Shown: piece after piece, positions 4,396-31,657 of the stretch
Layout: every line of letters begins with the position of its first letter
How positions within the stretch are numbered: position 1 is the first letter of the stretch
The notes under the pieces: generated by a model
The model's input: only the letters and a program-made list of their open reading frames with translations
Database searches by the model: none
Told to the model about the DNA's origin: nothing
Translations under genes and position numbers: made by a program
From: Candidatus Scatovivens sp.
Lineage (GTDB): Bacteria; Bacillota; Clostridia; TANB77; CAG-508
Reading direction: 5' to 3'
DNA: 37,561 nucleotides
Assembly (NCBI GenBank): GCA_045602645.1
Contig: JAZSBZ010000066.1
Span: 1-37,561 of the forward strand

Positions 4396-4560
4396 ATGAA
4401 CAAAAATTGGCACTGGCCTATGGCCAGAGAAAGAAAATTAAATATTAAGTCAAAAACAAATTTAAAAAATAAAATTGAAAAGGAGATTTTTTATTATGGA
4501 AAATTATGGAGAATTTGGTGGTTTATATGTGCCACAAAACTTAAGAGAAAGATTAGATGA
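4396..4560 (+). CDS. Second Trp-containing uORF (MNKNWHWP..., 54 aa) overlapping the trpB start out of frame
   Basis: Strong AAGGAGGTG RBS (4381-4389), ATG at 4396, Trp codons 5 and 7; reads through the trpB RBS to TGA at 4558-4560. Confidence 0.5.
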
Positions 4561-5656
4561 AGTAAAGAAGGAATTTGAAAAACAAAAAGATAATGAGGAA
4601 TTTAATAAAGAATATATTTATTATTTAAAACAATATGTTGGAAGACCAACACCGGTATATTATGCAGAAAATTTAAGCAAAAGCTTAGGTGGAGCTAAAA
4701 TCTATTTAAAAAGGGAAGATTTAAATCATACAGGTGCTCACAAAATAAACAATGCTATTGGCCAAATACTTCTTGCTAAAAAGATGGGAAAAACACATGT
4801 AATTGCAGAGACTGGAGCTGGGCAACATGGTGTAGCAACAGCAACTGTATGTAGCTTATTTGATATAAAATGCACAATATTTATGGGGAAAGAAGATATA
4901 AGAAGACAAAGAGTTAATGTAGAGAAAATGAAACTTTTAGGTGCTACAGTAAGAGAAGTAACTAGAGGTGAAGGTGTATTAAAAGATGCTGTAGATGATG
5001 CGTTTGAATTTTTTGTAGAAAATGATGATGTGTTTTACTTAATTGGATCTGCAGTAGGTCCTGCACCATATCCAGAAATGGTTAAACACTTTCAAAAGAT
5101 TATCGGGGAAGAAGCTAAAAAACAAGTAAAAGAGTTAGAAGGAAAATTACCTAAAGCAGTAATTGCTTGTGTAGGTGGTGGAAGTAATGCAATAGGGATG
5201 TTTACTGATTTTGTTAAAGAAGAAAATGTTAAATTATATGGAATAGAAGGAGCAGGTCTTGGAATAGAAACAGGAAAACATGCGGCAAGTATGCAAAATA
5301 ATACGATTGGAATTATGCATGGAATGAAAACTTATATTATGCAAGATAAAGATGGAAATGTAAAAGATGCATATTCAATTTCAGCAGGACTTGATTATCC
5401 AGGTATTGGGCCAGAACATGCATATTTATCAAGTATAGGTAGAGTAAAATATGATTCAATTACTGATAAGGAAGCAGTAAATGCCTTTAAAGCATTAACA
5501 AGATATGAAGGAATTATTCCAGCATTAGAGTCTAGCCATGCGGTAGCATATAGTATGAAAATAGCAAAAGAATATGATAAAGATGATATTATTTTAGTTA
5601 ATTTATCTGGAAGAGGCGATAAAGATATTGAGCAAATTTTATCTTTAGAAGATTAA
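4496..5656 (+). CDS. trpB: Tryptophan synthase beta chain (stand-alone)
   Basis: PLP-lysine motif [51 protein letters not shown]. The probable start is ATG 4496 after AAGGAG. Confidence 0.97.
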
Positions 5657-6021
5657 TATAACTTTTGTAAATTAGAAATAAGGATAAGTAAATTTTTTGG
5701 AGTAATGTAGATATAATCAAAGTCTAGTTTAAACACGGCTGGAAAATTAGTTTTAAATTTATCGAGGTTTAATCTTGTAAAAAGATTTTCTATATTTTTG
5801 ATAATTTGTTTTTCAGGTTTATTAAAATTTTTACTAGTTAAAGAGCATAAATCTATTAGCTTAATTTCATCGAGATTAAATTCTGAAGAGTTTTTAATTA
5901 AATCTCTATAATAGATATACCCCTTAGAGCAAATATTAAATCCTAGTCGATTTAAAATAGAATCAATATTTAAAAAATTAAATAATTGTTTATCTTCAGT
6001 ACAACTATTAATTTTTTCCAT
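5653..6021 (-). CDS. Stand-alone Spo0A C-terminal (DNA-binding)-like domain protein
   Basis: [21 protein letters not shown] resembles Spo0A_C IIHEIGVPAHIKGYxYLREAI, followed by an HTH-like segment and PKNLLILIS. Start ATG 6021 after AGGAGGT. No receiver domain. Confidence 0.65.
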
Positions 6022-6081
6022 ATTGTAACCTCCTGATGAGTATAATTTACACGAAATAAAAGAAAACATCAAATTAAAAGT

Positions 6082-6223
6082 GTTGCGCATCGCGCGACAA
6101 AAATAGAGTATAAAAGTTGCATTGTATGCAACAAAAATGAAAGGAATCTTAAAAGTACAAATAAATTAAAAAAGAAAAAGAAGTAAAAATTAAAAAATCA
6201 GAAAAAGTTGATTTTTACGCAAC
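6082..6223. promoter_or_regulatory. Operator cluster A: three 17-bp GTTG-N9-CAAC-type sites
   Basis: GTTGCGCATCGCGCGAC (6082-6098), GTTGCATTGTATGCAAC (6116-6132), GTTGATTTTTACGCAAC (6207-6223). Confidence 0.75.
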
Positions 6224-6246
6224 AAAGCCGGCTATTAGCCGGCTTT
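6224..6246 (-). terminator. Terminator of 6258..6998
   Basis: AAAGCCGGCTA-t-TAGCCGGCTTT inverted repeat just past the stop codon. Confidence 0.75.
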
Positions 6247-6257
6247 AATGTTTTTAT

Positions 6258-6998
6258 TTATTTTTTTGATTCTTTATTATTAATTATTCTAAAAGATTTG
6301 TAATCTTCTTCAGAATATGTTTTCATATCTTCTTTTGAAAGACAGTCATATGTATAAGTTAATTTTTCTCTTGTTTTAAGTACTTCTACATCATCTCTTA
6401 CAGTATATTCTTCTCTACATACAATACATCCAGTTTCATGATCTACGTAGTAGTAATCAACTTCGTTATGATCTTCATAGTAAGAAGTAAATGAAATTAA
6501 GAAACATCTTGTTTCTTCATAAAATTCAATTCCATGATATTCATAGTTGTATAAATTTTCATTTGCAGCATGTTTTCTGATATATGTATCAAAGTATATT
6601 GAAAAGTTATCATAGCAATAATCAAAGAAAATATCATCAATAGAGACGGTATTATTATCAATGTTTACTGTAACTTGAGTATTGCTTGAAAAATCAGTAT
6701 ATGTTTTTTCTACTATATTTCCAATATCGTTATATCCGTCTACGTATAAGTTATCATCTAATCTGTATATTTCTGCAACAGTAAATGTTTCGTCAAGTTC
6801 AGAATCATACATTTCATATTTTGCTAAATAGTTATTAGAAATATGTTCTGGGTTTTGAATTTTTTCAAGAACAATTCCTAAAGTATTCCTTTGAATTGTA
6901 AAAAAATGAATAGCATTGTTAAACAGTATATATAAAATCCCTATACCAACAGCGGCTATTATTAGAAATGAAAGTATACTTGCTAATTTCTTTTTCAT
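6258..6998 (-). CDS. Membrane-anchored extracellular hypothetical protein (Tyr/acidic, beta-rich)
   Basis: MKKK plus an N-terminal hydrophobic helix; GGAGGT RBS before ATG 6998. Confidence 0.75.
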   Translation of the reverse strand: MKKKLASILSFLIIAAVGIGILYILFNNAIHFFTIQRNTLGIVLEKIQNPEHISNNYLAKYEMYDSELDETFTVAEIYRLDDNLYVDGYNDIGNIVEKTYTDFSSNTQVTVNIDNNTVSIDDIFFDYCYDNFSIYFDTYIRKHAANENLYNYEYHGIEFYEETRCFLISFTSYYEDHNEVDYYYVDHETGCIVCREEYTVRDDVEVLKTREKLTYTYDCLSKEDMKTYSEEDYKSFRIINNKESKK

Positions 6999-7109
6999 AA
7001 GTACCTCCATAAGAGTAAATCTATAATAATGGTATTAATAAATTAAGAAAAAGTCAATGTTATAAAGGATAAATAAAAGATGATTTATGAAATACTTTTT
7101 GATTATTAA

Positions 7110-7140
7110 AAAGAAAAAGCGCCGGTAACCCAGCGCCTTT
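7110..7140 (-). terminator. Terminator of the small-peptide transcript
   Basis: Minus strand GCGCTGG-gtta-CCGGCGC followed by TTTTTCTTTT. Confidence 0.75.
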
Positions 7141-7171
7141 GGAGTTTTTAGATAAAAAATAATTCAAACTT

Positions 7172-7240
7172 TTATGCGATATGTCCATCGATAGAATAAC
7201 ATGCAACAGATCCATCAATGCATGGAAAAATATTTTTCAT
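7172..7240 (-). CDS. 22-aa peptide MKNIFPCIDGSVACYSIDGHIA (absent from the ORF track)
   Basis: AAAGGAG RBS, ATG 7240, TAA 7172-7174, internal IDGxxA repeat, its own promoter and terminator. Confidence 0.6.
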   Translation of the reverse strand: MKNIFPCIDGSVACYSIDGHIA

Positions 7241-7266
7241 TTGTTCTTTTCTCCTTTCATTAGATT

Positions 7267-7444
7267 CATTAAAGTGCGATTACTTGTTTTTAGTTCAAAC
7301 GCATCTTTATGAATGCATAAGGAGATAAGAATCTCAAGTAATATAAAATCCAGGCACTCACGATTGCCTGGAAAATTGTTTTTCAAGGCTTCGCTAGCGC
7401 GTCTGGAGTATACTTGACTATAAACTCCATATATATCTTTAATG
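7267..7444 (-). ncRNA. Unassigned multi-branched structured RNA (5' leader of the 22-aa peptide)
   Basis: Closing stem CATTAAAG/CTTTAATG. Hairpins at 7404-7429 and 7349-7372 (TCCAGGCA/TGCCTGGA). ATTACTTG/CAAGTAAT stem at 7279-7342 encloses two small hairpins. A TTGATT-17-TAAACT promoter lies just upstream. Confidence 0.5.
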
Positions 7445-7491
7445 TGTAACAAGAGTTTATCAAAATAAAATTATAAAATCAAAATTAAAGC

Positions 7492-7634
7492 GTTGCGCAT
7501 TAGGAAACCAATAGTTGCTTAAAATGCAACAAAATAGAGGAAAAGACTTGAAAAATAAGGATAAAGGTGATAAAATGTTTATGTTAACTTTAATATAATT
7601 ACTTAATTCATATAAACGTTGATTTTTACGCAAC
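7492..7634. promoter_or_regulatory. Operator cluster B and divergent promoters of the XRE gene and the peptide transcript
   Basis: GTTGCGCATTAGGAAAC (7492-7508), GTTGCTTAAAATGCAAC (7514-7530), GTTGATTTTTACGCAAC (7618-7634). XRE promoter TTGAAA (7548), 17 nt, TAAAAT (7571). Confidence 0.75.
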
Positions 7635-7651
7635 GATTTTTGGAGGTGGCT

Positions 7652-8398
7652 ATGCCAGATAAAAAGACAAGTATTTATTATGATGTTGGCGAAAGAATAA
7701 GATTTTATAGAAAACTAAAGAATTTATCGTTAAGTAAATTTGGAAATATGATAGGAAAGACTAAATCTACAGTATGTAGATATGAGACTAATGAAATCTG
7801 TCCAGATGTTATAACACTTTGTGAGATATGTTCTGCACTAGAGATATCAGTTAGTGAATTTTTAGATGAAAATAAAAGTGCTGCAACAGAATATAGCATT
7901 AATCCATTTGGAGAAAATGAGCTTTATTTATACTATATTGGTTTTAGTAAAAAACTAGTTGTATCAAAATTAGAGATTACTTTAATAGATGGAGTTTATA
8001 AGGTTGTATTAAAAAATGCTATTAATAATTCTATTTCAGAAAGAGATTCATACCATTATGATGGTAAAATGGAATCAAACGGAATAGTAACATTCTTTAA
8101 TTTATCTAATTCATTTAATAATAAGAAATTTGAAAAGATACAAATAACAATAAATAACCAATTCGCTGAAAATGGATTCTATTATGGTTCAATAAGTGCG
8201 ACTGGTAATGATAACTTATCTACAAATAGAAAATGTATGATATGCTCTAAGAAAACAGAAGACTTATCAAAAGAGCAAAGAAAGCAAATATTTGAAAAGT
8301 TAAAAATATCTAAAAAAGAAATAGATCAAATAAAGAAAAATTACTACTGGGATCCAATTATAAGAAACGAAGAAGATTATTCGGTGGTAGTAGAATAA
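7652..8398 (+). CDS. XRE-family HTH regulator with an unknown ~170-aa C-terminal domain
   Basis: VGERIRFYRKLKNLSLSKFGNMIGKTKSTVCRYETNEICPD is a Cro/C1 HTH; GGAGGTGG RBS before ATG 7652. Confidence 0.9.
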   Translation: MPDKKTSIYYDVGERIRFYRKLKNLSLSKFGNMIGKTKSTVCRYETNEICPDVITLCEICSALEISVSEFLDENKSAATEYSINPFGENELYLYYIGFSKKLVVSKLEITLIDGVYKVVLKNAINNSISERDSYHYDGKMESNGIVTFFNLSNSFNNKKFEKIQITINNQFAENGFYYGSISATGNDNLSTNRKCMICSKKTEDLSKEQRKQIFEKLKISKKEIDQIKKNYYWDPIIRNEEDYSVVVE

Positions 8399-8620
8399 TA
8401 AAAGTAAATATGAAAATAATTAATTTTAAGAGGGAAGCTAGAAATAGCTTCTCTTTTTTAATTTTTAAAACAAATGTATGAGGGTTTTTAATGGTAAAAA
8501 AGTGATTTTATAGAGTTTTAAATGCTTTTAAGGGAATAATGAATTCTTTTTAAAATAGCGTGCTAGTATGTAGTCAGTTCGAACAAACAAACACTTTTCT
8601 AGAAAAGAAAAAGGAGGGTT

Positions 8621-8896
8621 ATGAATAATATAACAGGAGAAGAAGACATGATTGAGGTAGATGTTTCACCTTATACTCTTGAAAAAGCATTTACAGATTA
8701 TAAACATTACTTAGCAATGAAACCGCTTTCTAAAATAGAGAAGTTAGTCTTATATACACTAATAGTTGAGCTAACTCCACTTGGAGTAGCGTGTAAGAAA
8801 CTGAAGATGAGTAAATATGAAGTTATAAAGACAAAAGAAAAAGCATTAAGAAATTTTAAAGCTAATTTAAAGAGAATTATAAAGGAGAATAAGTAA
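8621..8896 (+). CDS. Small sigma-70 region-4-like HTH protein
   Basis: LSKIEKLVLY...ACKKLKMSKYEVIKTKEKALRNFK fits the sigma r4 pattern; stop/start overlap (TAATG) with the next gene. Confidence 0.6.
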   Translation: MNNITGEEDMIEVDVSPYTLEKAFTDYKHYLAMKPLSKIEKLVLYTLIVELTPLGVACKKLKMSKYEVIKTKEKALRNFKANLKRIIKENK

Positions 8897-10305
8897 TGGC
8901 TAATAAAAACGTAAAAGTAATATACAAGAAGATAGAACCAGAATTCTTAAACAAATATGGATATATAAACTTAAATCATAGAGAAGTAAATACAAAAAGC
9001 GATTTAGTTGAAATAGCGAGTATTTTTAGAAATCCAATGTATGAAACTTTTAGAATCATATATATGAAAAATAAAAGTATTGTTGGGTATGAATCAATAT
9101 CAAGCAGAGGTACACGAACTGTAGAGATATTTCCTAAATCAAAATCAGGAAGGAATACTAATGAAAAATGTTTTTATAAGATTTCTGACAGAATGAGAAG
9201 ATTAAATGCAAATGGATATTATATGGTTCACAATCATCCAAGTGGACATGCTAAAGCATCAAGAGATGACTTAAAAGTTACAGAAGCATTTGCTGAGAAT
9301 CTTGATGGATTTCTAGGGCATTTAATTGTTAATACAGAAAGTTATGCATGGATTGATGTAGATAAATATGGAATTGCAAAAGCAGACAATTTCCAAGAAG
9401 TAAAAAAATTAAAGAAGGATAGGTATTATAAGATGTTAAATAAGAAATCAATATATGATGTAAAAATAGAATCAAGAGAGGATTTGGTAGCATTAATGCA
9501 CCATATTAAAAATAGTAAGGATTATTCTAGTCTAATATTTTGTGATGCAAGAGGAAAGATAAGAATGATTCAAGATATGCCAAATAGATTCTTAAATATG
9601 AAAGATGAACAGTTAGAAGGATATCTTGCAAATCAAAAATTATTAAATGGAGCAACAAGGGTATTCTTTGCAACAACAGATAATGAGGTTTATAAAAAGG
9701 CTATTAAGTTCTGGCAGAAAGAAGTATTCTTAGATGCAATTTGTTATAAGGAAGAAGACAGTAGAATTTATACATATGAAAAAGTAAGGGTAGAGACAGT
9801 AGATAATATTGAGAACATTAATAGGATAAGACAATTCGAAGAAATGGAAGAAAAGATAGAAGAGCTTAGAGAGACTAATAAAGCATTAGCGGTTACTGAA
9901 GACAATGAAACCTATAAAAGACCGGATGTATTAAAAGTATTATTAAAAAGAGTAGGAAAAGAACCTGAAGTTGTAGAGATAAAAAATAATCTAGTAACAA
10001 AACAAGAATTAGTAGGAGGGTTAATAGAAGTAGTTCAATATGATGATGTGATTATTATTTGTAATGAAGAAGGTAAAGTTTTAGGATTACCACCAAATCT
10101 TATTTTTGAACTTGATTATATTGCAGGAGATTGCTTCATTGTAGGAGATGATTATGAACATGGAGATTTTAAAAGTTTAACTGACGATGAGATTAGAAGA
10201 TATAAAAAAGATTTAAGTGATAGAGGATTTAAATATAAAAGTGAAGATGATTTTATCCCCTCAAAAGAAAAAGAGCGCGGAGAGCGCATGCGAGGGAAAG
10301 CTTAG
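8896..10305 (+). CDS. RadC/JAB-like domain protein fused to a C-terminal DUF3846-like domain
   Basis: HNHPSG...SRDD JAB metal motif; C-terminal QELVGGLIEVV...IICNEEGKVLGLPPN...IAGDCFIVG. Confidence 0.7.
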   Translation: MANKNVKVIYKKIEPEFLNKYGYINLNHREVNTKSDLVEIASIFRNPMYETFRIIYMKNKSIVGYESISSRGTRTVEIFPKSKSGRNTNEKCFYKISDRMRRLNANGYYMVHNHPSGHAKASRDDLKVTEAFAENLDGFLGHLIVNTESYAWIDVDKYGIAKADNFQEVKKLKKDRYYKMLNKKSIYDVKIESREDLVALMHHIKNSKDYSSLIFCDARGKIRMIQDMPNRFLNMKDEQLEGYLANQKLLNGATRVFFATTDNEVYKKAIKFWQKEVFLDAICYKEEDSRIYTYEKVRVETVDNIENINRIRQFEEMEEKIEELRETNKALAVTEDNETYKRPDVLKVLLKRVGKEPEVVEIKNNLVTKQELVGGLIEVVQYDDVIIICNEEGKVLGLPPNLIFELDYIAGDCFIVGDDYEHGDFKSLTDDEIRRYKKDLSDRGFKYKSEDDFIPSKEKERGERMRGKA

Positions 10306-10355: not shown

Positions 10356-11357
10356 ATGGGTATACCAATTATTAGAAATGTTAAGCATACACTAGGTAGA
10401 TTAACATGGGTATATAGACACAATGAAAGAAAAAACATCAATTATTCTAATAAAGAAATTGATGAGACTAAAACTAAAAATAATTATTGGTTAAAGAAAC
10501 CGGAAAATCCTTACGTAAAAGAATTCTTTCTAATTAGAGAAAAGAATAACTTATTCGGTAGTCTTAGAAAAAATTCTAAAGCGGTATGTGAATATGTTAT
10601 AGGATGTAGTGACAATTACTTTGAAGAGATTGGTGCAGAAGAAACTAAAAGATATTTTGAAGAGGCATATAAGTTTGTTCAAAATTATAAGGATTTAGGA
10701 GAGAAGTATATTATTTCTGCTGTTGTTCATATGGACGAGACTAATCCACACATGCATTTAACATACATTCCAGTAGTACATAAGGTTAATCCAATGACAG
10801 GAGGTAAGTTTGATAAGATAGCATGCTCAGAATTTTGGGGGCAAAGATTTAGTTATTCTAATTTACATGAAGCGTTTCATAATCATATGATAGATGCAGG
10901 TTTTGAACTTGAAAGAGGTGCGTTTACAAAAATTCAATTTATTCCAGTTAGTAAGTTAAAGGTACTTACTAATTATGAGGCACAGAAATTAGAACTTCAG
11001 ATGAATAAGCCTGAAGAGGAAATAGAGACAGATGATATAAATGTTTTAAGAGAGGAATACAAAAGAGTAGTTAAAAAGATAAATAATATTTCAAGGCAGT
11101 ATGCTAAAGTAAAAGCGATTATTGAAAATAATGTTAAAAAGATGGAATATTTATTCGAAGAAAACGAAAGATTATCAAGTAATTATAGAGCAGAAAAACA
11201 AAGAAATTCTTGGTATAAATTCTGCATTAATAAAGTATTTGAGTGTGTGAGTATATTATTTAATTTCCCAGAAAATAGACTAAAATCTATAGCTGGTAGA
11301 TTTATTGAAAGTACAAAAGAAGAAAATGTTGAAAAAGAAGTACAAACTACCAAATAA
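10356..11357 (+). CDS. MobV/Pre-family relaxase (plasmid recombination enzyme)
   Basis: N-terminal HNER motif, HUH motif VHMDETNPHMH, coiled-coil C-terminus. Confidence 0.88.
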   Translation: MGIPIIRNVKHTLGRLTWVYRHNERKNINYSNKEIDETKTKNNYWLKKPENPYVKEFFLIREKNNLFGSLRKNSKAVCEYVIGCSDNYFEEIGAEETKRYFEEAYKFVQNYKDLGEKYIISAVVHMDETNPHMHLTYIPVVHKVNPMTGGKFDKIACSEFWGQRFSYSNLHEAFHNHMIDAGFELERGAFTKIQFIPVSKLKVLTNYEAQKLELQMNKPEEEIETDDINVLREEYKRVVKKINNISRQYAKVKAIIENNVKKMEYLFEENERLSSNYRAEKQRNSWYKFCINKVFECVSILFNFPENRLKSIAGRFIESTKEENVEKEVQTTK

Positions 11358-12238: not shown

Positions 12239-12619
12239 ATGATTAATGTTGTTGCTGGAATTATAAGAAATGAAGAAGAAAAAATCTTAATAACTCAAAG
12301 AAATTTGAAAAAAGCACAAGGTGGATTATGGGAGTTCCCTGGAGGTAAGATAGAAGCAGGAGAAACAAAAGAGGATGCGATAGTAAGAGAAATTAAAGAA
12401 GAATTAACAATAGACATTAGAGTTGATGAGTATCTTGATGAGAAATTATTCGAGTACCCAGAAAAAACAATAAACTTAATTGCAATAAAATGTACAAAAG
12501 TTGGGGGAGATCTTAACTTAAATGAACATGAAGATGCAAGATGGATATCAAAGGATGAACTTGATAATTTCGAATTTGCACCAGCAGATCATTTTATAGT
12601 TAATAAATTAAAGGTATAA
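12239..12619 (+). CDS. NUDIX hydrolase (MutT/NudG-like)
   Basis: WEFPGGKIEAGETKEDAIVREIKEEL Nudix box; FAPAD C-terminal motif. Confidence 0.92.
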   Translation: MINVVAGIIRNEEEKILITQRNLKKAQGGLWEFPGGKIEAGETKEDAIVREIKEELTIDIRVDEYLDEKLFEYPEKTINLIAIKCTKVGGDLNLNEHEDARWISKDELDNFEFAPADHFIVNKLKV

Positions 12620-13296: not shown

Positions 13297-14013
13297 CTAT
13301 CTATCTTCGCGACCTGCAATATGTGAATCAAGTTGGCTTTGAAGTGTTTCAATATTCTTTGAAATACCTGCTATAATTGCTCTTTTTAATAATGCATTTA
13401 AATGTTCAGGTTCTGGAGAATATTCTTTTGGAATAGCAGCTAAAACAAATTTATCTCTAATACTATATTGAGTAATTCTTCCATTTTCGTCTTTTTTACG
13501 AGATAAATTATTAAGTAGTATTCCTAAGTCCATTGGGAAACCATGTTCTTTTGAAAATTGTCTTGCAAAAGTAATTGTTGTTCTTGTATTTCCATCTCTA
13601 AATGGATGTATTTTCCAAAGTTCTGTAAGATGATCTGTAAAAGTTGCAACTTTTTCATCAAAAGGAAGCGAGTCCCAATTTACCTCATTCATTTTTTTAA
13701 GACATGCATTCATTTCTTTACTAATATCTTTTGCTTGAGAATATTCTAAACTTAAACCTGGAAGAACAAGTTCTTCTTTAATGATAGGTACAGTTCTATA
13801 TTCACCAGCCCAATCAAAGATGTCTTCAAATATATGTTTATGTATTGATTTAAAATATTTTGCATCAAATTGTTGCTTGTAAGACATGTCTACGTCTAAG
13901 AATTTGGCGAAAGTAATGTCTCTTTCTGCTCTATTTAATTCATCATAAGAGGTGATACCTAATTTGTTTCTTAATACCGCATTTTCGTCATCATATACAT
14001 ATGGATCGTGCAT
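13297..14013 (-). CDS. Fic-domain protein (FicT-like toxin) with a non-canonical motif
   Basis: DPYVY...VLRNKLGI N-terminus, IHKHIFEDIFDWAGEYR, HPFRDGNTRTTI. Confidence 0.92.
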   Translation of the reverse strand: MHDPYVYDDENAVLRNKLGITSYDELNRAERDITFAKFLDVDMSYKQQFDAKYFKSIHKHIFEDIFDWAGEYRTVPIIKEELVLPGLSLEYSQAKDISKEMNACLKKMNEVNWDSLPFDEKVATFTDHLTELWKIHPFRDGNTRTTITFARQFSKEHGFPMDLGILLNNLSRKKDENGRITQYSIRDKFVLAAIPKEYSPEPEHLNALLKRAIIAGISKNIETLQSQLDSHIAGREDR

Positions 14014-28884: not shown

Positions 28885-29159
28885 TAGCTAAAAAAAGTAA
28901 TATAAAAATGAAGACTGTAGAGTTTTTAAAACTTTGCAGTCTTTTTTTGACTAAAAGATAAAGTTGTCATTGCCTTTAAGAGTTTTCCATGTTATAATGC
29001 AGTCTGGAATAACATGGTTATTTCAGGTAACACTGCAAGTTTGCTGAAATTTTGGCATTCTTGTATATCCTTATGTCTCTCTAAAAAGGAGGTTATTTTT
29101 TGTTAAGAGAGATGATCGTAACTTTAGTAACTGTTGGACAATGAAAGGAGTGTTTTAGT

Positions 29160-31535
29160 ATGCCTTATACTATCAACCTGACGACACTCAAATCTCATTA
29201 TAGAGACGCTGCACGGACCCTTTACAACAAGGAATTGAGTCAGCTTTCTCCTCATGAGATTAACGGTGTCATCGCAAACGTGGTGAAGAACAAAGTAATT
29301 TGTAATAGCTGGGAATACTCTCAGAATCTGTATTCTCAGCAGAGAATTGCTATTTACTTCTCCATCGAATTCCTCATTGGTCGTGTTGTGCTCGATGCAC
29401 TGAATAACACTGGCCTTTTGGAGGAAACCAGAAAGATTTTTGAAGAAGAAGGAATCGATATCAACTGCCTGGAGGCTGTTGACGATCCTGCACTCGGCAA
29501 TGGTGGCCTCGGTCGTCTTGCTGCCTGCTTCATTGAATCTGCTGCTACTTTGGGAATCCCGCTTTACGGCGTTGGACTTTTCTACAAGTACGGTTTGTTC
29601 AAGCAGGCATTTGACGAAAACGGCTGGCAGATTGCCAAAAGTGATGACTGGACTGCTGGAGGAATTGATCCTTGGTTTGAAGGTCATGAAGACGAATACG
29701 AAATCGTAGAATTCCAGGATACCAGGGTTAAAGCTGTTCCTTACGTGATGCCGGTTGTTGGTTACAAGACTAACGCGTTCCCGCTCACTCTTTGGAAAGC
29801 TGAACCTATCGAAGGACAGACCAACGCATCTGCTGCAGCAATCTCTGACTGGCTGTATCCGAGCGATGGTGACGATGATGGTAAGATCCTCAGAATCCGT
29901 CAGGAATATTTCTTTGTTAGTGCAATGCTTCAGAGAATTTTCCGAATCCACAAAGAAAAGCATGGTACTCTTGATAACATCGGAGATTACTATTATTTCC
30001 AGATGAACGATACCCATCCGGTATTCGGTTGTTTGGAATTTATTAGACTCCTGAAACTTGAGGGTTATACGTTTGATCGTGCGTTTGAGATGGCAAGAGA
30101 TTGTTTTGCTTATACTAATCACACGATTATGCCGGAAGCCCTTGAGAAGTGGAATATTTTGCTTTTCAAGAACCTGCTGCCTAACGTCTTTAAGGTAGTT
30201 GAAGAAATTAATCAGAAGCTCATTGATGAACTCAAGAGAGAAGATTATTTCTGCAACACCCGAATGGAAAATGGGCGCTATGTTAAGGATCCCGCATGGG
30301 ACAGAATCAATCCGTATGAAATGTTCCAGGGGGGATACGTTCATATGAGCCGTATCGCATGCTATGTCGGTCGCAAGATCAATGGCGTTGCATCGGTTCA
30401 CACGGAAATTATCAAGAAGGATCTTTTGAGCATTTGGAATGCTCGCTATCCTTGGAAGTTCAATAACAAGACTAACGGCGTTACTCCTAGACGTTGGCTG
30501 AGACTGGCTAATCCGGATCTGGCTGCGTTCTTGGACAAGTATGTTGGTCCTGAATGGACTACCGACATGACTCTGCTCGAAGGACTTGAGCAGTACAAAA
30601 ACGACAGGGAAGTCCTTGCAGAATTCGCAGCTGCGAAGTTTGAAGCCAAGAAACGTTTGGCAGCCTACATCGAAGAGAAGGAAGGTATCTATGTAGATCC
30701 TACCAGTATTTTCGACTGTCAGGTTAAGAGAATCCATGAGTATAAGCGTCAGCTTATGAATGCTCTTAGAATTCTTTACATTTACGACCAGCTTAAGAAG
30801 GGTAAACTTCCGAATTTCTACAAGACAACCTTCATCATCGGCGGCAAGGCCGCGTCTTCCTACAAGAAGGCTATCCAGACTATTGCTCTTATTAAGGACA
30901 TTCAGCAGCTCGTTAATAACGACCCTGATGTTAATGATAAGATGCAGGTTGTGTTCCTTACGAACTTCAATGTTAGCTATGCTGAAAAGGTATATGCTGC
31001 TGCCAACTTCTCTGAACAGATTAGTACTGCAGGTACCGAAGCTTCTGGTACCGGTAATATGAAGTTCATGATGAACGGCGCACCTACCATTGGTACTCTT
31101 GATGGTGCCAACATTGAGATCGTTGAGGAAGCAAGTTCCAAGAACAACTATATTTTTGGTGCGACAGTTGAAGAACTTAAGCGTATTAAGTCTATCTACA
31201 ATCACCATACTATCCTCGAATCCAACAAGGAAATGGTAGATCTGCTCGCTTACCTTAAGGGTGAGAGAACGCTCAGAGCTACCTACTGGGATCTCGTGAA
31301 CACTTTGCTTTACGACGACAAGTATTATGTGATGTATGACCTTGAGTCTTATATCAAGATTTCCCTGAAGGCAATCGCGGACTATGGTTTTGAACAGCAG
31401 ACTGGAGACCTGACTCATCATACGAGAAAGGCCTTCAAGAACACCGCCCATAGTGGCAAGTTCTCTTCTGACCGTACGATCCTTGAGTATGCCAACGACA
31501 TTTGGTATATCAAGCCTGTAGAAGTTAACAACTAA
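29160..31535 (+). CDS. glgP: Glycogen/maltodextrin phosphorylase
   Basis: GNGGLGRLAACF, QMNDTHP, TNGVTPRRW, KRIHEYKRQ, EASGTGNMK (PLP lysine). Confidence 0.96.
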   Translation: MPYTINLTTLKSHYRDAARTLYNKELSQLSPHEINGVIANVVKNKVICNSWEYSQNLYSQQRIAIYFSIEFLIGRVVLDALNNTGLLEETRKIFEEEGIDINCLEAVDDPALGNGGLGRLAACFIESAATLGIPLYGVGLFYKYGLFKQAFDENGWQIAKSDDWTAGGIDPWFEGHEDEYEIVEFQDTRVKAVPYVMPVVGYKTNAFPLTLWKAEPIEGQTNASAAAISDWLYPSDGDDDGKILRIRQEYFFVSAMLQRIFRIHKEKHGTLDNIGDYYYFQMNDTHPVFGCLEFIRLLKLEGYTFDRAFEMARDCFAYTNHTIMPEALEKWNILLFKNLLPNVFKVVEEINQKLIDELKREDYFCNTRMENGRYVKDPAWDRINPYEMFQGGYVHMSRIACYVGRKINGVASVHTEIIKKDLLSIWNARYPWKFNNKTNGVTPRRWLRLANPDLAAFLDKYVGPEWTTDMTLLEGLEQYKNDREVLAEFAAAKFEAKKRLAAYIEEKEGIYVDPTSIFDCQVKRIHEYKRQLMNALRILYIYDQLKKGKLPNFYKTTFIIGGKAASSYKKAIQTIALIKDIQQLVNNDPDVNDKMQVVFLTNFNVSYAEKVYAAANFSEQISTAGTEASGTGNMKFMMNGAPTIGTLDGANIEIVEEASSKNNYIFGATVEELKRIKSIYNHHTILESNKEMVDLLAYLKGERTLRATYWDLVNTLLYDDKYYVMYDLESYIKISLKAIADYGFEQQTGDLTHHTRKAFKNTAHSGKFSSDRTILEYANDIWYIKPVEVNN

Positions 31536-31657
31536 ATAAGACATAGGAAATCCCGGGGACATTTAGTCCCCGGGATAACTCATTTATAGGGTAAAAACAG
31601 GTGATTGAAATATTGATATTAGTTGACATAACATCAAAAATATGATATACTAAACTT

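Follow-up and report, generated by a model that had tools for sequence, protein, structure and literature searches.

What kind of switch is formed when the genes for an XRE-family regulator and for a stand-alone Spo0A effector domain share a short stretch of DNA with six operator-like sites and a structured RNA that carries a small open reading frame (ORF)? These parts lie at positions 5653–8398 of a 37,561-nucleotide stretch from Candidatus Scatovivens sp. (contig JAZSBZ010000066.1), which was analyzed as a whole and is called the window below. An earlier note on this DNA had grouped them into one candidate regulatory system, and comparison with relatives confirms that they form one conserved module. 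Because a RadC/DUF3846 gene and a MobV relaxase gene lie downstream, we regard positions 5653–8398 as the control region of a MobV mobilizable element. The module is the decision point of this element, which circulates among gut Firmicutes with small genomes that belong to one order. Probably, the XRE protein binds the operators as the master regulator, the leader RNA attenuates, and the Spo0A-like factor is the output.

Relatives of the module were collected through the XRE protein. Nineteen XRE relatives are present in the protein database, their identity over most of the length ranging between 81% and 34%. A search of 301 genomes of the same order gave XRE matches at E ≤ 1e-5 in 97 genomes, most of the matches being restricted to the helix-turn-helix (HTH) domain. 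The set of relatives consists of the 39 loci from these genomes in which most of the XRE protein is matched, taken with flanks of ±4 kb (many contigs end early), and of two additions: L058, a metagenome contig whose XRE protein is 78% identical, and L060, a locus from the same genus. L058 is collinear with the window from trpB to MobV, and besides the XRE protein its Spo0A_C-like protein (64%), 91-amino acid protein (64%), RadC/DUF3846 protein (60%), and MobV relaxase (72%) are conserved. At the DNA level, searching the leader region against 401 genomes of the family returned mostly AT-rich noise, and the only real relative was L060.

The regulator gene, the operators, and the promoters between which they lie are as follows.
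7652–8398, plus strand: gene for the XRE-family regulator, 248 amino acids, with an HTH_3 domain (about residues 12–71), an eight-stranded β-barrel (about 82–201), and two C-terminal helices.
7548–7576, plus strand: XRE promoter from the promoter scan, with a TG extension and 10 matches to the 12 consensus positions, also kept in L058 and L060.
7492–7508, 7514–7530, and 7618–7634, no strand: operator set 2, three inverted repeats with start-to-start spacings of 22 and 104, positions kept in L058 and L060.
7454–7482, minus strand: predicted promoter of the leader RNA (−35 box 7482–7477, −10 box 7459–7454; 8 of 12 consensus positions).
6082–6098, 6116–6132, and 6207–6223, no strand: operator set 1, three inverted repeats with start-to-start spacings of 34 and 91, positions kept in L058.
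6044–6072, minus strand: predicted weak sigma-A promoter of the Spo0A_C-like gene (−35 box 6072–6067, −10 box 6049–6044; 8 of 12 consensus positions).
8428–8457, plus strand: terminator after the XRE gene, from the hairpin scan.

Read directly, the window contains six 17-bp inverted repeats of the GTTGC-N7-GCAAC type in two intergenic sets, and the sites at 6207–6223 and 7618–7634 have the same letters throughout. The earlier note had described six pseudo-palindromes in two clusters of the same order with identical third sites, and all six were recovered where it had placed them. When the motif was counted with at most one mismatch on both strands of the whole window, 22 strand-matches were found, as compared with 3.55 ± 2.24 in 100 shuffles, none of which reached 22; 12 of the 22 are the six sites, each read on both strands. 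The two intergenic regions align with a mean column identity of 74%, with the sites and the minus-strand −35 box in register, and by this alignment the two operator sets are paralogous. In DNA contigs from two runs, 23 positions are variable over 3.1 kb, and the only ones inside a site are 7499 and 7500, at the center of one site.

Both minus-strand promoters share the same geometry, in which a 9-nt gap separates the first site from the −35 box, followed by a 17-nt spacer and the −10 box. This geometry, like the location of the 7618 site between the XRE promoter and the ribosome-binding site (RBS), had been noticed before and is correct. The two promoters are missing from the promoter scan because they match the consensus at 8 of 12 positions and the threshold was 9; at the position of the leader RNA promoter, L060 has a promoter that by eye is much better than that of the window. 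The close pair of set 2 sits between the divergent −35 boxes, and its third site falls into the 5′ untranslated region (UTR) of the XRE gene. The promoter-proximal site spans about −61 to −45. Its center is therefore near −53 and not near −42, which does not agree with the activation from a lambda PRM-like position that the earlier note had proposed.

A scan of the 1.62-Mb assembly for the exact motif, a check that the earlier note had called for, found 21 places. Four of them belong to the two sets, and the remaining 17 are dispersed, isolated matches, so that the scan gives no wider regulon in the assembly. A palindrome on contig C85 was considered as a further target and set aside; no element genes adjoin it, and by our reading tRNA-/rRNA-like sequence lies nearby.

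The operators recur in the relatives. Each of 24 loci was scanned over its whole length with one seed site chosen by eye, allowing at most two mismatches in the ten arm positions; the seed site itself is circular evidence, and the other sites are not. At least three sites within a 460-nt zone were found in 18 of the 24 loci, two sites in four, and one site in two. The layout upstream of the Spo0A_C-like gene consists of a terminator, the distal site directly after it, and the close pair just upstream of the promoter. Spacings are 21 and 91–102 in 13 loci, 32–34 and 81–102 in three (window, L058, and L021), and 60–61 and 83 in two. Matches outside the zone are few in most loci (none in 8,188 nt of L050, two in 7,598 nt of L046) and more frequent with AT-rich seeds (30 in L039). 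In the window, L058, and L060, the site positions are kept while the flanks diverge.

The half-sites vary among lineages in the manner of immunity specificities, with eight variants. Among the loci to which sites could be assigned, one half-site class goes with Arg, and another with Lys, at the residue before the conserved Tyr/Phe-Glu of the XRE recognition helix. This trend is suggestive and weak, being confounded by relatedness and by hybrid sites. Set 2 is found in the window, L058, and L060 only, with a single site at the corresponding place in L021; in the other relatives examined, the XRE and leader promoters stand back to back without sites. L060 keeps both sets, one of them upstream of its homologue of the 91-amino acid protein, and has no Spo0A_C-like gene within its 3.4 kb. 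In relatives, Spo0A_C-like promoters that appear near-consensus by eye lie about 10 nt downstream of the proximal site.

The XRE protein itself matches Pfam HTH_3 (PF01381) with 37.5 bits (cutoff 23) and no other family, and its sequence profile reaches solved structures through the HTH only (C.BclI, PezA, SinR, and P22 c2; E 5e-11 to 4e-8). The AlphaFold2 (AF2) model, with a predicted local distance difference test (pLDDT) score of 82, consists of a five-helix HTH at residues 12–71, eight strands at 90–198, and two helices at 207–230. In a VIA-align structure comparison that covered 48,161 chains, the HTH matches DdrO, P22 c2, ImmR, and SinR at Z 11–12 (P22 c2 at Z 11.7). Residues 82–202 match de novo eight-stranded barrels (Z 10.0), shwanavidin (Z 8.9), and a streptavidin-peptide entry (Z 8.8). 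Chains of ComR, PrgX, Rgg2, and Rgg144 match the model within residues 9–77 only. As modeled, the C-terminal domain is an eight-stranded up-and-down β-barrel, neither a TPR nor a cupin domain. The TPR-like helical repeat domain of RRNPP receptors is absent from the AF2 model, in which only two helices follow the strands, and the remark of the earlier note that this domain does not look TPR-like holds. A cupin fold was rejected, the HTH-cupin entries (HppE, 1y9q) aligning over the full length at template modeling (TM) scores of 0.24–0.35 with a root-mean-square deviation of about 14.

A profile of the C-terminal domain finds 295 representative clusters at E ≤ 1e-3 among 1.84 billion proteins (85 at ≤ 1e-10, 29 at ≤ 1e-30). 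Among the 150 clusters listed, most have 230–250 amino acids with the domain at about residues 80–240. The barrel family is thus small, with one architecture predominating. The ESM Atlas, searched with this domain, gave unnamed clusters only (best score 0.87) and no lead, and collections of plasmids and phages gave no tblastn match at 1e-8. A single-protein pattern scan of reference genomes for XRE relatives found one distant HTH match only. Several homologues are interrupted: L060 (1939–2664) has a frame shift near residue 72 at a G-run, those of L055 and L056 are split in two, and in L019 the reading frame contains a stop codon. Either the elements are decaying or the assemblies contain errors.

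On the opposite strand, the second operator set faces a small transcription unit with three parts.
7241–7447, minus strand: structured leader RNA with the terminator-like hairpin H2 at 7349–7372, from fold z-score and covariation.
7172–7240, minus strand: micro-ORF of 22 codons with a strong RBS and a conserved core around Ile-Asp-Gly, from the ORF list and homologues.
7115–7140, minus strand: T1, the intrinsic terminator of the leader/micro-ORF transcript, 11 pairs followed by a T-run.

The leader alone (7241–7447) folds with z = −5.0, and none of 200 shuffles folds as well; leader, micro-ORF, and T1 together reach z = −5.2. In a 15-locus alignment, H2 has eight pairs, six of them with compensatory changes, and 87.5% of the cells are paired. 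Its covariation score is reached by none of 500 shuffles, and in slid controls 16–52% of the cells are paired. Because a U-run follows H2 in most loci, the hairpin looks like an attenuator. The hairpin scan found seven terminator-like hairpins (0.6 expected), including T1, the hairpin at 7372–7349 inside the leader, and one at 6224–6246. The families of Rfam 15 gave no match in the window (best sub-threshold E 0.67) and tRNAs only in 17 related loci.

A 242-nt contig from a metatranscriptome run matches 7183–7424 without a difference, and nothing else in that run matches the 3.1 kb well; a second metatranscriptome run contributes a 238-nt contig over 5633–5870. Such contigs show presence and continuity through H2, not strand, ends, or level.

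In relatives, the leader strand carries a second, separately promoted and terminated small transcript between T1 and the operators. A second transcript with a loop complementary to that of H2 occurs in L021, L034 (by eye), L035, L041, L043, L045, L047, L048, L050, L052, and L053. In 10 of the 15 loci of the alignment matrix, the H2 loop is complementary over 7–10 nt to the hairpin loop of the second transcript of the same locus, as compared with 4–6 nt for unrelated pairings, and a matched change separates L048/L050 from L052/L053. By these pairings, the second small transcript looks like a trans-encoded kissing-loop regulator of the attenuator. No partner of the H2 loop was found for the window, L058, L060, L046, or L049, and a genome-wide search returned 17 + 17 near-matches (30 + 29 in the reversed control), with no partner among them. 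A triple near-match to the H2 loop on contig C25 (11566–11638; L071) is a coding acidic repeat in a long ORF and was dismissed as coincidence. In another sub-lineage (L018, L019, L020, L022, L025, L055, and L056), it is the 5′ end of the second RNA that by eye seems complementary to the leader segment before T1, with changes that look matched between loci, again by eye.

The earlier note had asked whether the XRE gene and the small ORF travel together. This is so for most loci: the micro-ORF is found in 31 of 42, and these keep the order of leader, small ORF, and intrinsic terminator. It fails for eight loci that lack the micro-ORF despite a barrel-bearing XRE; one further locus is uncertain, and two cannot be judged at contig ends. 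RBS and start codon are, as we read them, kept in most of the 31 loci (the RBS of L045 looks weak). The length varies from 11 to 59 codons (21 codons in the L058 homologue; 11 in L060, where the ORF ends in Ile-Asp-Gly). Several of the ORFs run through T1, and because of this and the variable length the C-terminal part is unlikely to matter.

The core consists of an aromatic or aliphatic residue, often Cys, an aliphatic residue, then Asp or Gly, and Gly, and continues in many relatives with Arg, a variable residue, Pro or Ser, and Trp or Arg. In the window lineage it reads Ile-Asp-Gly, and in a second lineage it is basic and Trp-rich, with Cys after it. A comparison of the window with L058 shows changes in three of the first 11 codons, two of which are synonymous, with one, one, and three differences at the first, second, and third codon positions; L039 and L040 differ at three, one, and four. 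Judged from these comparisons, the core is under peptide-level constraint. By eye, no export-type hydrophobic segment is visible in the products, many of which are Arg- and Trp-rich.

Set 1 and the end of the leader unit enclose one gene and are followed by another.
5653–6021, minus strand: gene for the stand-alone Spo0A effector domain (Spo0A_C-like), 122 amino acids, an ORF with an RBS and with profile and fold matches.
6224–6246, no strand: terminator-like hairpin from the hairpin scan that ends the gene for the 246-amino acid protein and abuts the distal site of set 1.
6258–6998, minus strand: gene for a 246-amino acid protein between T1 and set 1, with its own promoter-like site and, by eye, an N-terminal hydrophobic stretch.

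As a single sequence, the Spo0A_C-like protein stays below the cutoff of Pfam Spo0A_C (PF08769; E 0.093, 13.2 bits, cutoff 25). A profile of ten such proteins matches the Spo0A C-domains of PDB entries 1lq1 (E 6.7e-5) and 1fc3 (E 2.2e-4) over profile positions 12–103. The AF2 model (pLDDT 84) has six helices, and in a Foldseek search of the PDB ranks 1–7 are all Spo0A C-domain chains of 1fc3 and 1lq1 (TM 0.52–0.69, probability 1.00), with rank 8 at E 1.6. On the strength of profile and model, the 122-amino acid protein is a true receiver-less, stand-alone Spo0A effector domain. The effector domain fills residues 16–121 of 122, and Pfam gives no Response_reg match; without a receiver domain, the protein would have no phosphorelay input. 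With a hidden Markov model built from ten Spo0A_C-like proteins, the gene was found in 27 of 42 sources, the window included. PF08769 was reported to be enriched on mobile elements of gut Firmicutes, with no function given in the available text of the report (bioRxiv 10.1101/214213), and the module offers a concrete candidate role for such genes.

The 246-amino acid protein has no Pfam, NCBIfam, or PHROG match. Its gene is present in a DNA contig of run X2 and absent from the otherwise collinear L058, where for this reason T1 abuts the distal site of set 1 directly. From its absence in L058 it is a lineage-specific insert, and it occupies the spot at which relatives carry the second small RNA. 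The order of a terminator with the distal site directly after it is found likewise in L056, L018, and L058.

From these parts a cascade can be drawn. Dimeric HTH proteins of the Cro/C1 type typically bind palindromic 5+7+5 sites, and we infer that XRE dimers bind the 17-bp repeats from the dyad symmetry, the HTH class, the conservation of the sites, the specificity variants, and the site in the 5′ UTR of the XRE gene itself. A close pair with a distal site about 90–104 bp away (8–10 helical turns) would permit cooperative binding with a DNA loop. Set 2 would serve XRE autoregulation and control of the leader RNA, and set 1 would act from just upstream of the Spo0A_C-like promoter. With respect to the sign of control, we moderately favor repression; activation is distinctly less likely, and dual control takes the remainder. 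The arrangement of sites suggests that the XRE protein is probably a looping repressor. Looped repression is favored by the promoters of relatives, near-consensus in our reading, by the strongest and most symmetric site being usually the distal one, and by the third site of set 2 lying downstream of the XRE start; the weak promoters of the window and the lack of overlap between sites and core promoter hexamers favor activation.

The divergent RNA of about 330 nt would be a leader or attenuator, given its conserved hairpins, the terminator-like H2, the micro-ORF, and T1. The extent of read-through toward the Spo0A_C-like gene would depend on whether the micro-ORF is translated and on which of the alternative folds the RNA adopts. 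In many relatives, T1, the second small RNA, the operators, and the Spo0A_C-like, sigma-region-4-like, and RadC/DUF3846 genes lie on the same strand. Because the downstream genes share the leader strand, read-through would there reach the activation genes, and it would extend into the sigma-region-4-like, RadC/DUF3846, and relaxase genes. The likely positive output factor is the stand-alone Spo0A effector domain, which would need no phosphorylation. The XRE barrel would sense a ligand, which may be a small molecule or the peptide encoded by the micro-ORF.

Several observations weigh against this scheme. The sites are clear of the minus-strand −35 and −10 hexamers; a simple repressor would not usually be placed in this way, and the placement would also suit activation. 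Control of the leader RNA by the XRE protein would be confined to the window lineage (window, L058, and L060), because the XRE/leader region of most relatives has no sites. The Spo0A_C-like gene is missing from 15 of the 42 loci. Because the RNA contig passes through H2, this hairpin can be at most a partial terminator, and the contigs from RNA libraries are no proof of transcription. A simple model in which the ribosome masks the terminator misfits some loci, by our reading, because the distance from micro-ORF to T1 varies. The codon-position evidence for the peptide is thin, and L019 and L022 show four, one, and two differences at the first, second, and third codon positions without a synonymous codon change.

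Alternatively, the XRE protein could be a peptide-responsive activator of the Rgg/ComR/PrgX kind, in which the micro-ORF product, whole or processed, binds the C-terminal domain and which then activates the leader and Spo0A_C-like promoters and represses its own. A small ORF divergent from an HTH_3 regulator gene is the classic RRNPP layout (for PrgX and prgQ, see PMC3181467). The micro-ORF core is kept at the peptide level within lineages through synonymous changes. The promoters of the window match only 8 of 12 consensus positions and lie 9 nt downstream of a site. Up-and-down barrels, moreover, often bind ligands, and the nearest natural folds of this one are avidins, including the streptavidin-peptide entry. 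However, the TPR-like domain that defines RRNPP proteins is absent from the XRE model. By eye, the peptides show no signal-like hydrophobic segment, many being Arg-/Trp-rich, and their conserved part is N-terminal or central with a C terminus that varies and in some loci extends through T1, a pattern opposite to that of RRNPP pro-peptides. A site centered near −53 is in no position for contact with sigma region 4, and because the Spo0A_C-like promoters of relatives are near-consensus in our reading, they should not need an activator. With the barrel-bearing loci that lack a micro-ORF (8 of 42) also taken into account, we regard this mechanism as rather doubtful. For peptide sensing of the strict Rgg/ComR type, to which the earlier note had likened the locus, we found nothing in support, given that no export segment is visible by eye, ORF lengths of 11–59 codons, and these eight loci. 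An intracellular variant, in which an avidin-like barrel repressor binds the micro-peptide core without export, is unlikely; the pair would set the level of a Spo0A factor that turns on mobilization, and sister elements would use a kissing-loop RNA at the same hairpin. If true, this would be a kind of mobile-element switch not described before, in which a single scaffold had changed between control by RNA and control by operators.

The leader could also act by RNA alone, with a micro-ORF that is incidental or serves ribosome loading and with a hairpin loop that is the target of a trans small RNA or acts on the XRE mRNA. The covariation of H2, the complementarity of its loop to the second transcript in 10 of 15 loci with the matched changes between L048/L050 and L052/L053, and the strong differences in peptide sequence among lineages would all be accommodated. 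Yet the window, L058, and L060 have no loop partner, RBS and start are kept in most of the 31 loci, and core residues are kept via synonymous changes, which makes this reading quite improbable. Even less probable is that the repeats are bound not by the XRE protein but by the Spo0A_C-like protein, in autoregulation, or by the sigma-region-4-like 91-amino acid protein. In nearly all relatives, set 1 immediately precedes the Spo0A_C-like gene, most relatives have no sites next to XRE, and in L060 a set lies upstream of the 91-amino acid homologue. However, a 17-bp dyad fits neither the Spo0A box nor recognition by sigma region 4, Spo0A recognizing a 7-bp non-palindromic box. L060 keeps both sets without a Spo0A_C-like gene in its 3.4 kb, the third site of set 2 in the XRE 5′ UTR of the window lineage is typical of autoregulation, and the trend between recognition helix and half-site favors XRE. 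Binding of the operators by XRE, combined with attenuation in the leader and a Spo0A-like output, is thus the reading with which we compare known systems.

In phage immunity regions such as lambda CI/Cro OR and P22 c2, three dyad operators lie at divergent promoters, and specificity variants occur among relatives. Looping repressors such as pLS20 Rco bind a close pair and a distant site and loop the DNA cooperatively. The operator layout of the window, the half-site variants of its lineages, and the similarity of its HTH to P22 c2 recall both. Unlike in phage immunity regions, the operators are clear of the core promoter hexamers and a Cro-like second repressor is missing; family scans of the window ORFs also showed no peptidase or ImmA-type inactivation module.

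PrgX of the Enterococcus faecalis plasmid pCF10 has an HTH of the XRE/Cro-C1 kind and loops DNA between two operators. In pCF10, as at our locus, the regulator gene adjoins a leader RNA with a terminator that also serves as mRNA for a peptide about 22 residues long; there is a small RNA that promotes termination, and conjugation genes lie downstream (PMC3181467, available text). The same text describes the Qs RNA as an attenuating leader that is mRNA and regulatory RNA at once. Our locus differs in that the receptor domain is a β-barrel and not a helical-repeat domain, and in that the genes are divergent and not convergent or overlapping, so that there is no antisense counter-transcript. Furthermore, the partner small RNA is trans-encoded on the same strand in relatives and was not found in the window, and by eye the peptide has no hydrophobic pro-peptide character.

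For Tn916 (orf12, orf9, orf7/orf8), the available text of bioRxiv 10.64898/2026.10.01.756105, which also deals with orf9, has small-ORF attenuation feed Sig7-8. There, and in our reading here, read-through into the positive regulators that switch on a mobile element is gated by a small ORF together with terminators, repression is ascribed to an XRE-type protein, and a small sigma-region-4-like protein is present. In contrast to Tn916, our element has no tet(M) and no recognized counterpart of orf8 (a region 2 partner was not sought), its sigma-region-4 call is below the Pfam cutoff, and the factor beside the operators is a Spo0A effector domain. Its XRE protein carries a barrel, and the element is MobV-mobilizable and not conjugative.

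The N-terminal HTH_3 match and the small ORF divergent from the regulator gene are shared with RRNPP systems (Rgg/SHP, ComR/ComS, and PlcR/PapR), from which the protein departs by the lack of a TPR-like domain, by its length (248 as compared with about 285–320 amino acids), and by a peptide that by eye is not of the exported hydrophobic type. Like XRE-cupin factors, it fuses an XRE HTH to a β-rich sensor (PMC7901475, available text), but its barrel is an eight-stranded up-and-down meander and not a cupin jelly roll. The output factor resembles Spo0A in its six-helix effector domain by profile and fold, and differs in that it lacks a receiver and is encoded on a mobile element.

Immunity regions built on a repressor and its operators, attenuation by leader ORFs, and regulation of transfer genes by small RNAs all belong to known kinds. 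The literature searched, with subscription journals and supplements lying outside it, contains no description of this combination of parts, no co-occurrence of DUF3846 with a relaxase or with mobilizable elements among the papers listed for it, and on XRE-barrel regulators only the XRE-cupin work. The parts combined are a barrel-sensor XRE, immunity-like operator variants, a leader with a micro-ORF like Qs or orf12, and a receiver-less Spo0A domain. The relatives offer a natural series in which a single leader would be under RNA–RNA control in some elements and under protein–operator control in others. Beyond a few model integrative and conjugative elements and plasmids, hardly any work exists on the control circuits of integrative and mobilizable elements, although such elements move genes through gut communities. 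The module occurs at 39 places among the 301 genomes of one order and in animal-gut metagenomes from 12 studies. Words sampled from the region 5600–8700 occur in 20 public runs from these 12 studies, and at least half of them occur in 18 runs; the labeled runs are gut, feces, or sheep metagenomes, the gut and feces runs being of animals.

Downstream of the XRE gene, the window continues with the following genes of the element.
8621–8896, plus strand: 91-amino acid sigma-region-4-like protein, no Pfam match, with a sub-cutoff Sigma70_r4 match in the L060 homologue.
8896–10305, plus strand: RadC/DUF3846 protein (Pfam DUF3846 3.4e-27, RadC 3.7e-8).
10356–11357, plus strand: MobV relaxase (NCBIfam NF041497 equivalog, 105.3 bits, cutoff 100; Pfam Mob_Pre 3.6e-36).

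The Sigma70_r4 match of the L060 homologue has E 7.3e-4 and 19.4 bits, below the cutoff of 24.1. Among the 39 loci, tblastn at E ≤ 1e-3 finds the RadC/DUF3846 protein in 25, the 91-amino acid protein in 13, and MobV in seven. No recombinase, integrase, Rep, or transposase was found among 32 further window ORFs, with families taken at E ≤ 1e-5. A conserved pair of short palindromes, 8–10 nt apart, lies 20–35 nt upstream of the RBS of the 91-amino acid gene or its homologue in nine sources, at 8577–8605 in the window and likewise in L037, L039, L040, L041, L046, L047, L049, and L060. From its position, the pair is a candidate target of the Spo0A_C-like or the sigma-like protein. The first palindrome partly resembles a Spo0A box, a lead only.

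At the other end of the module, a trpB-like gene (4475–5656) ends 4 nt inside the convergent Spo0A_C-like gene (5653), a junction that L058 has in common with the window. Either this is a common insertion site, or trpB travels with the element lineage. TrpB was rejected as a part of the system; although L058 has the junction, the gene is not beside XRE at the other 39 loci searched (L060 lay outside that search). Farther away, two long ORFs overlap nearly fully on opposite strands at 29124–31562, one of 812 amino acids on the minus strand and one of 791 amino acids on the plus strand (29160–31535); the minus-strand ORF, the only one of the two scanned, has no Pfam match at E ≤ 1e-5. The relaxase region is followed by a NUDIX gene (12239–12619) and a Fic/DOC gene (13297–14013, minus strand).

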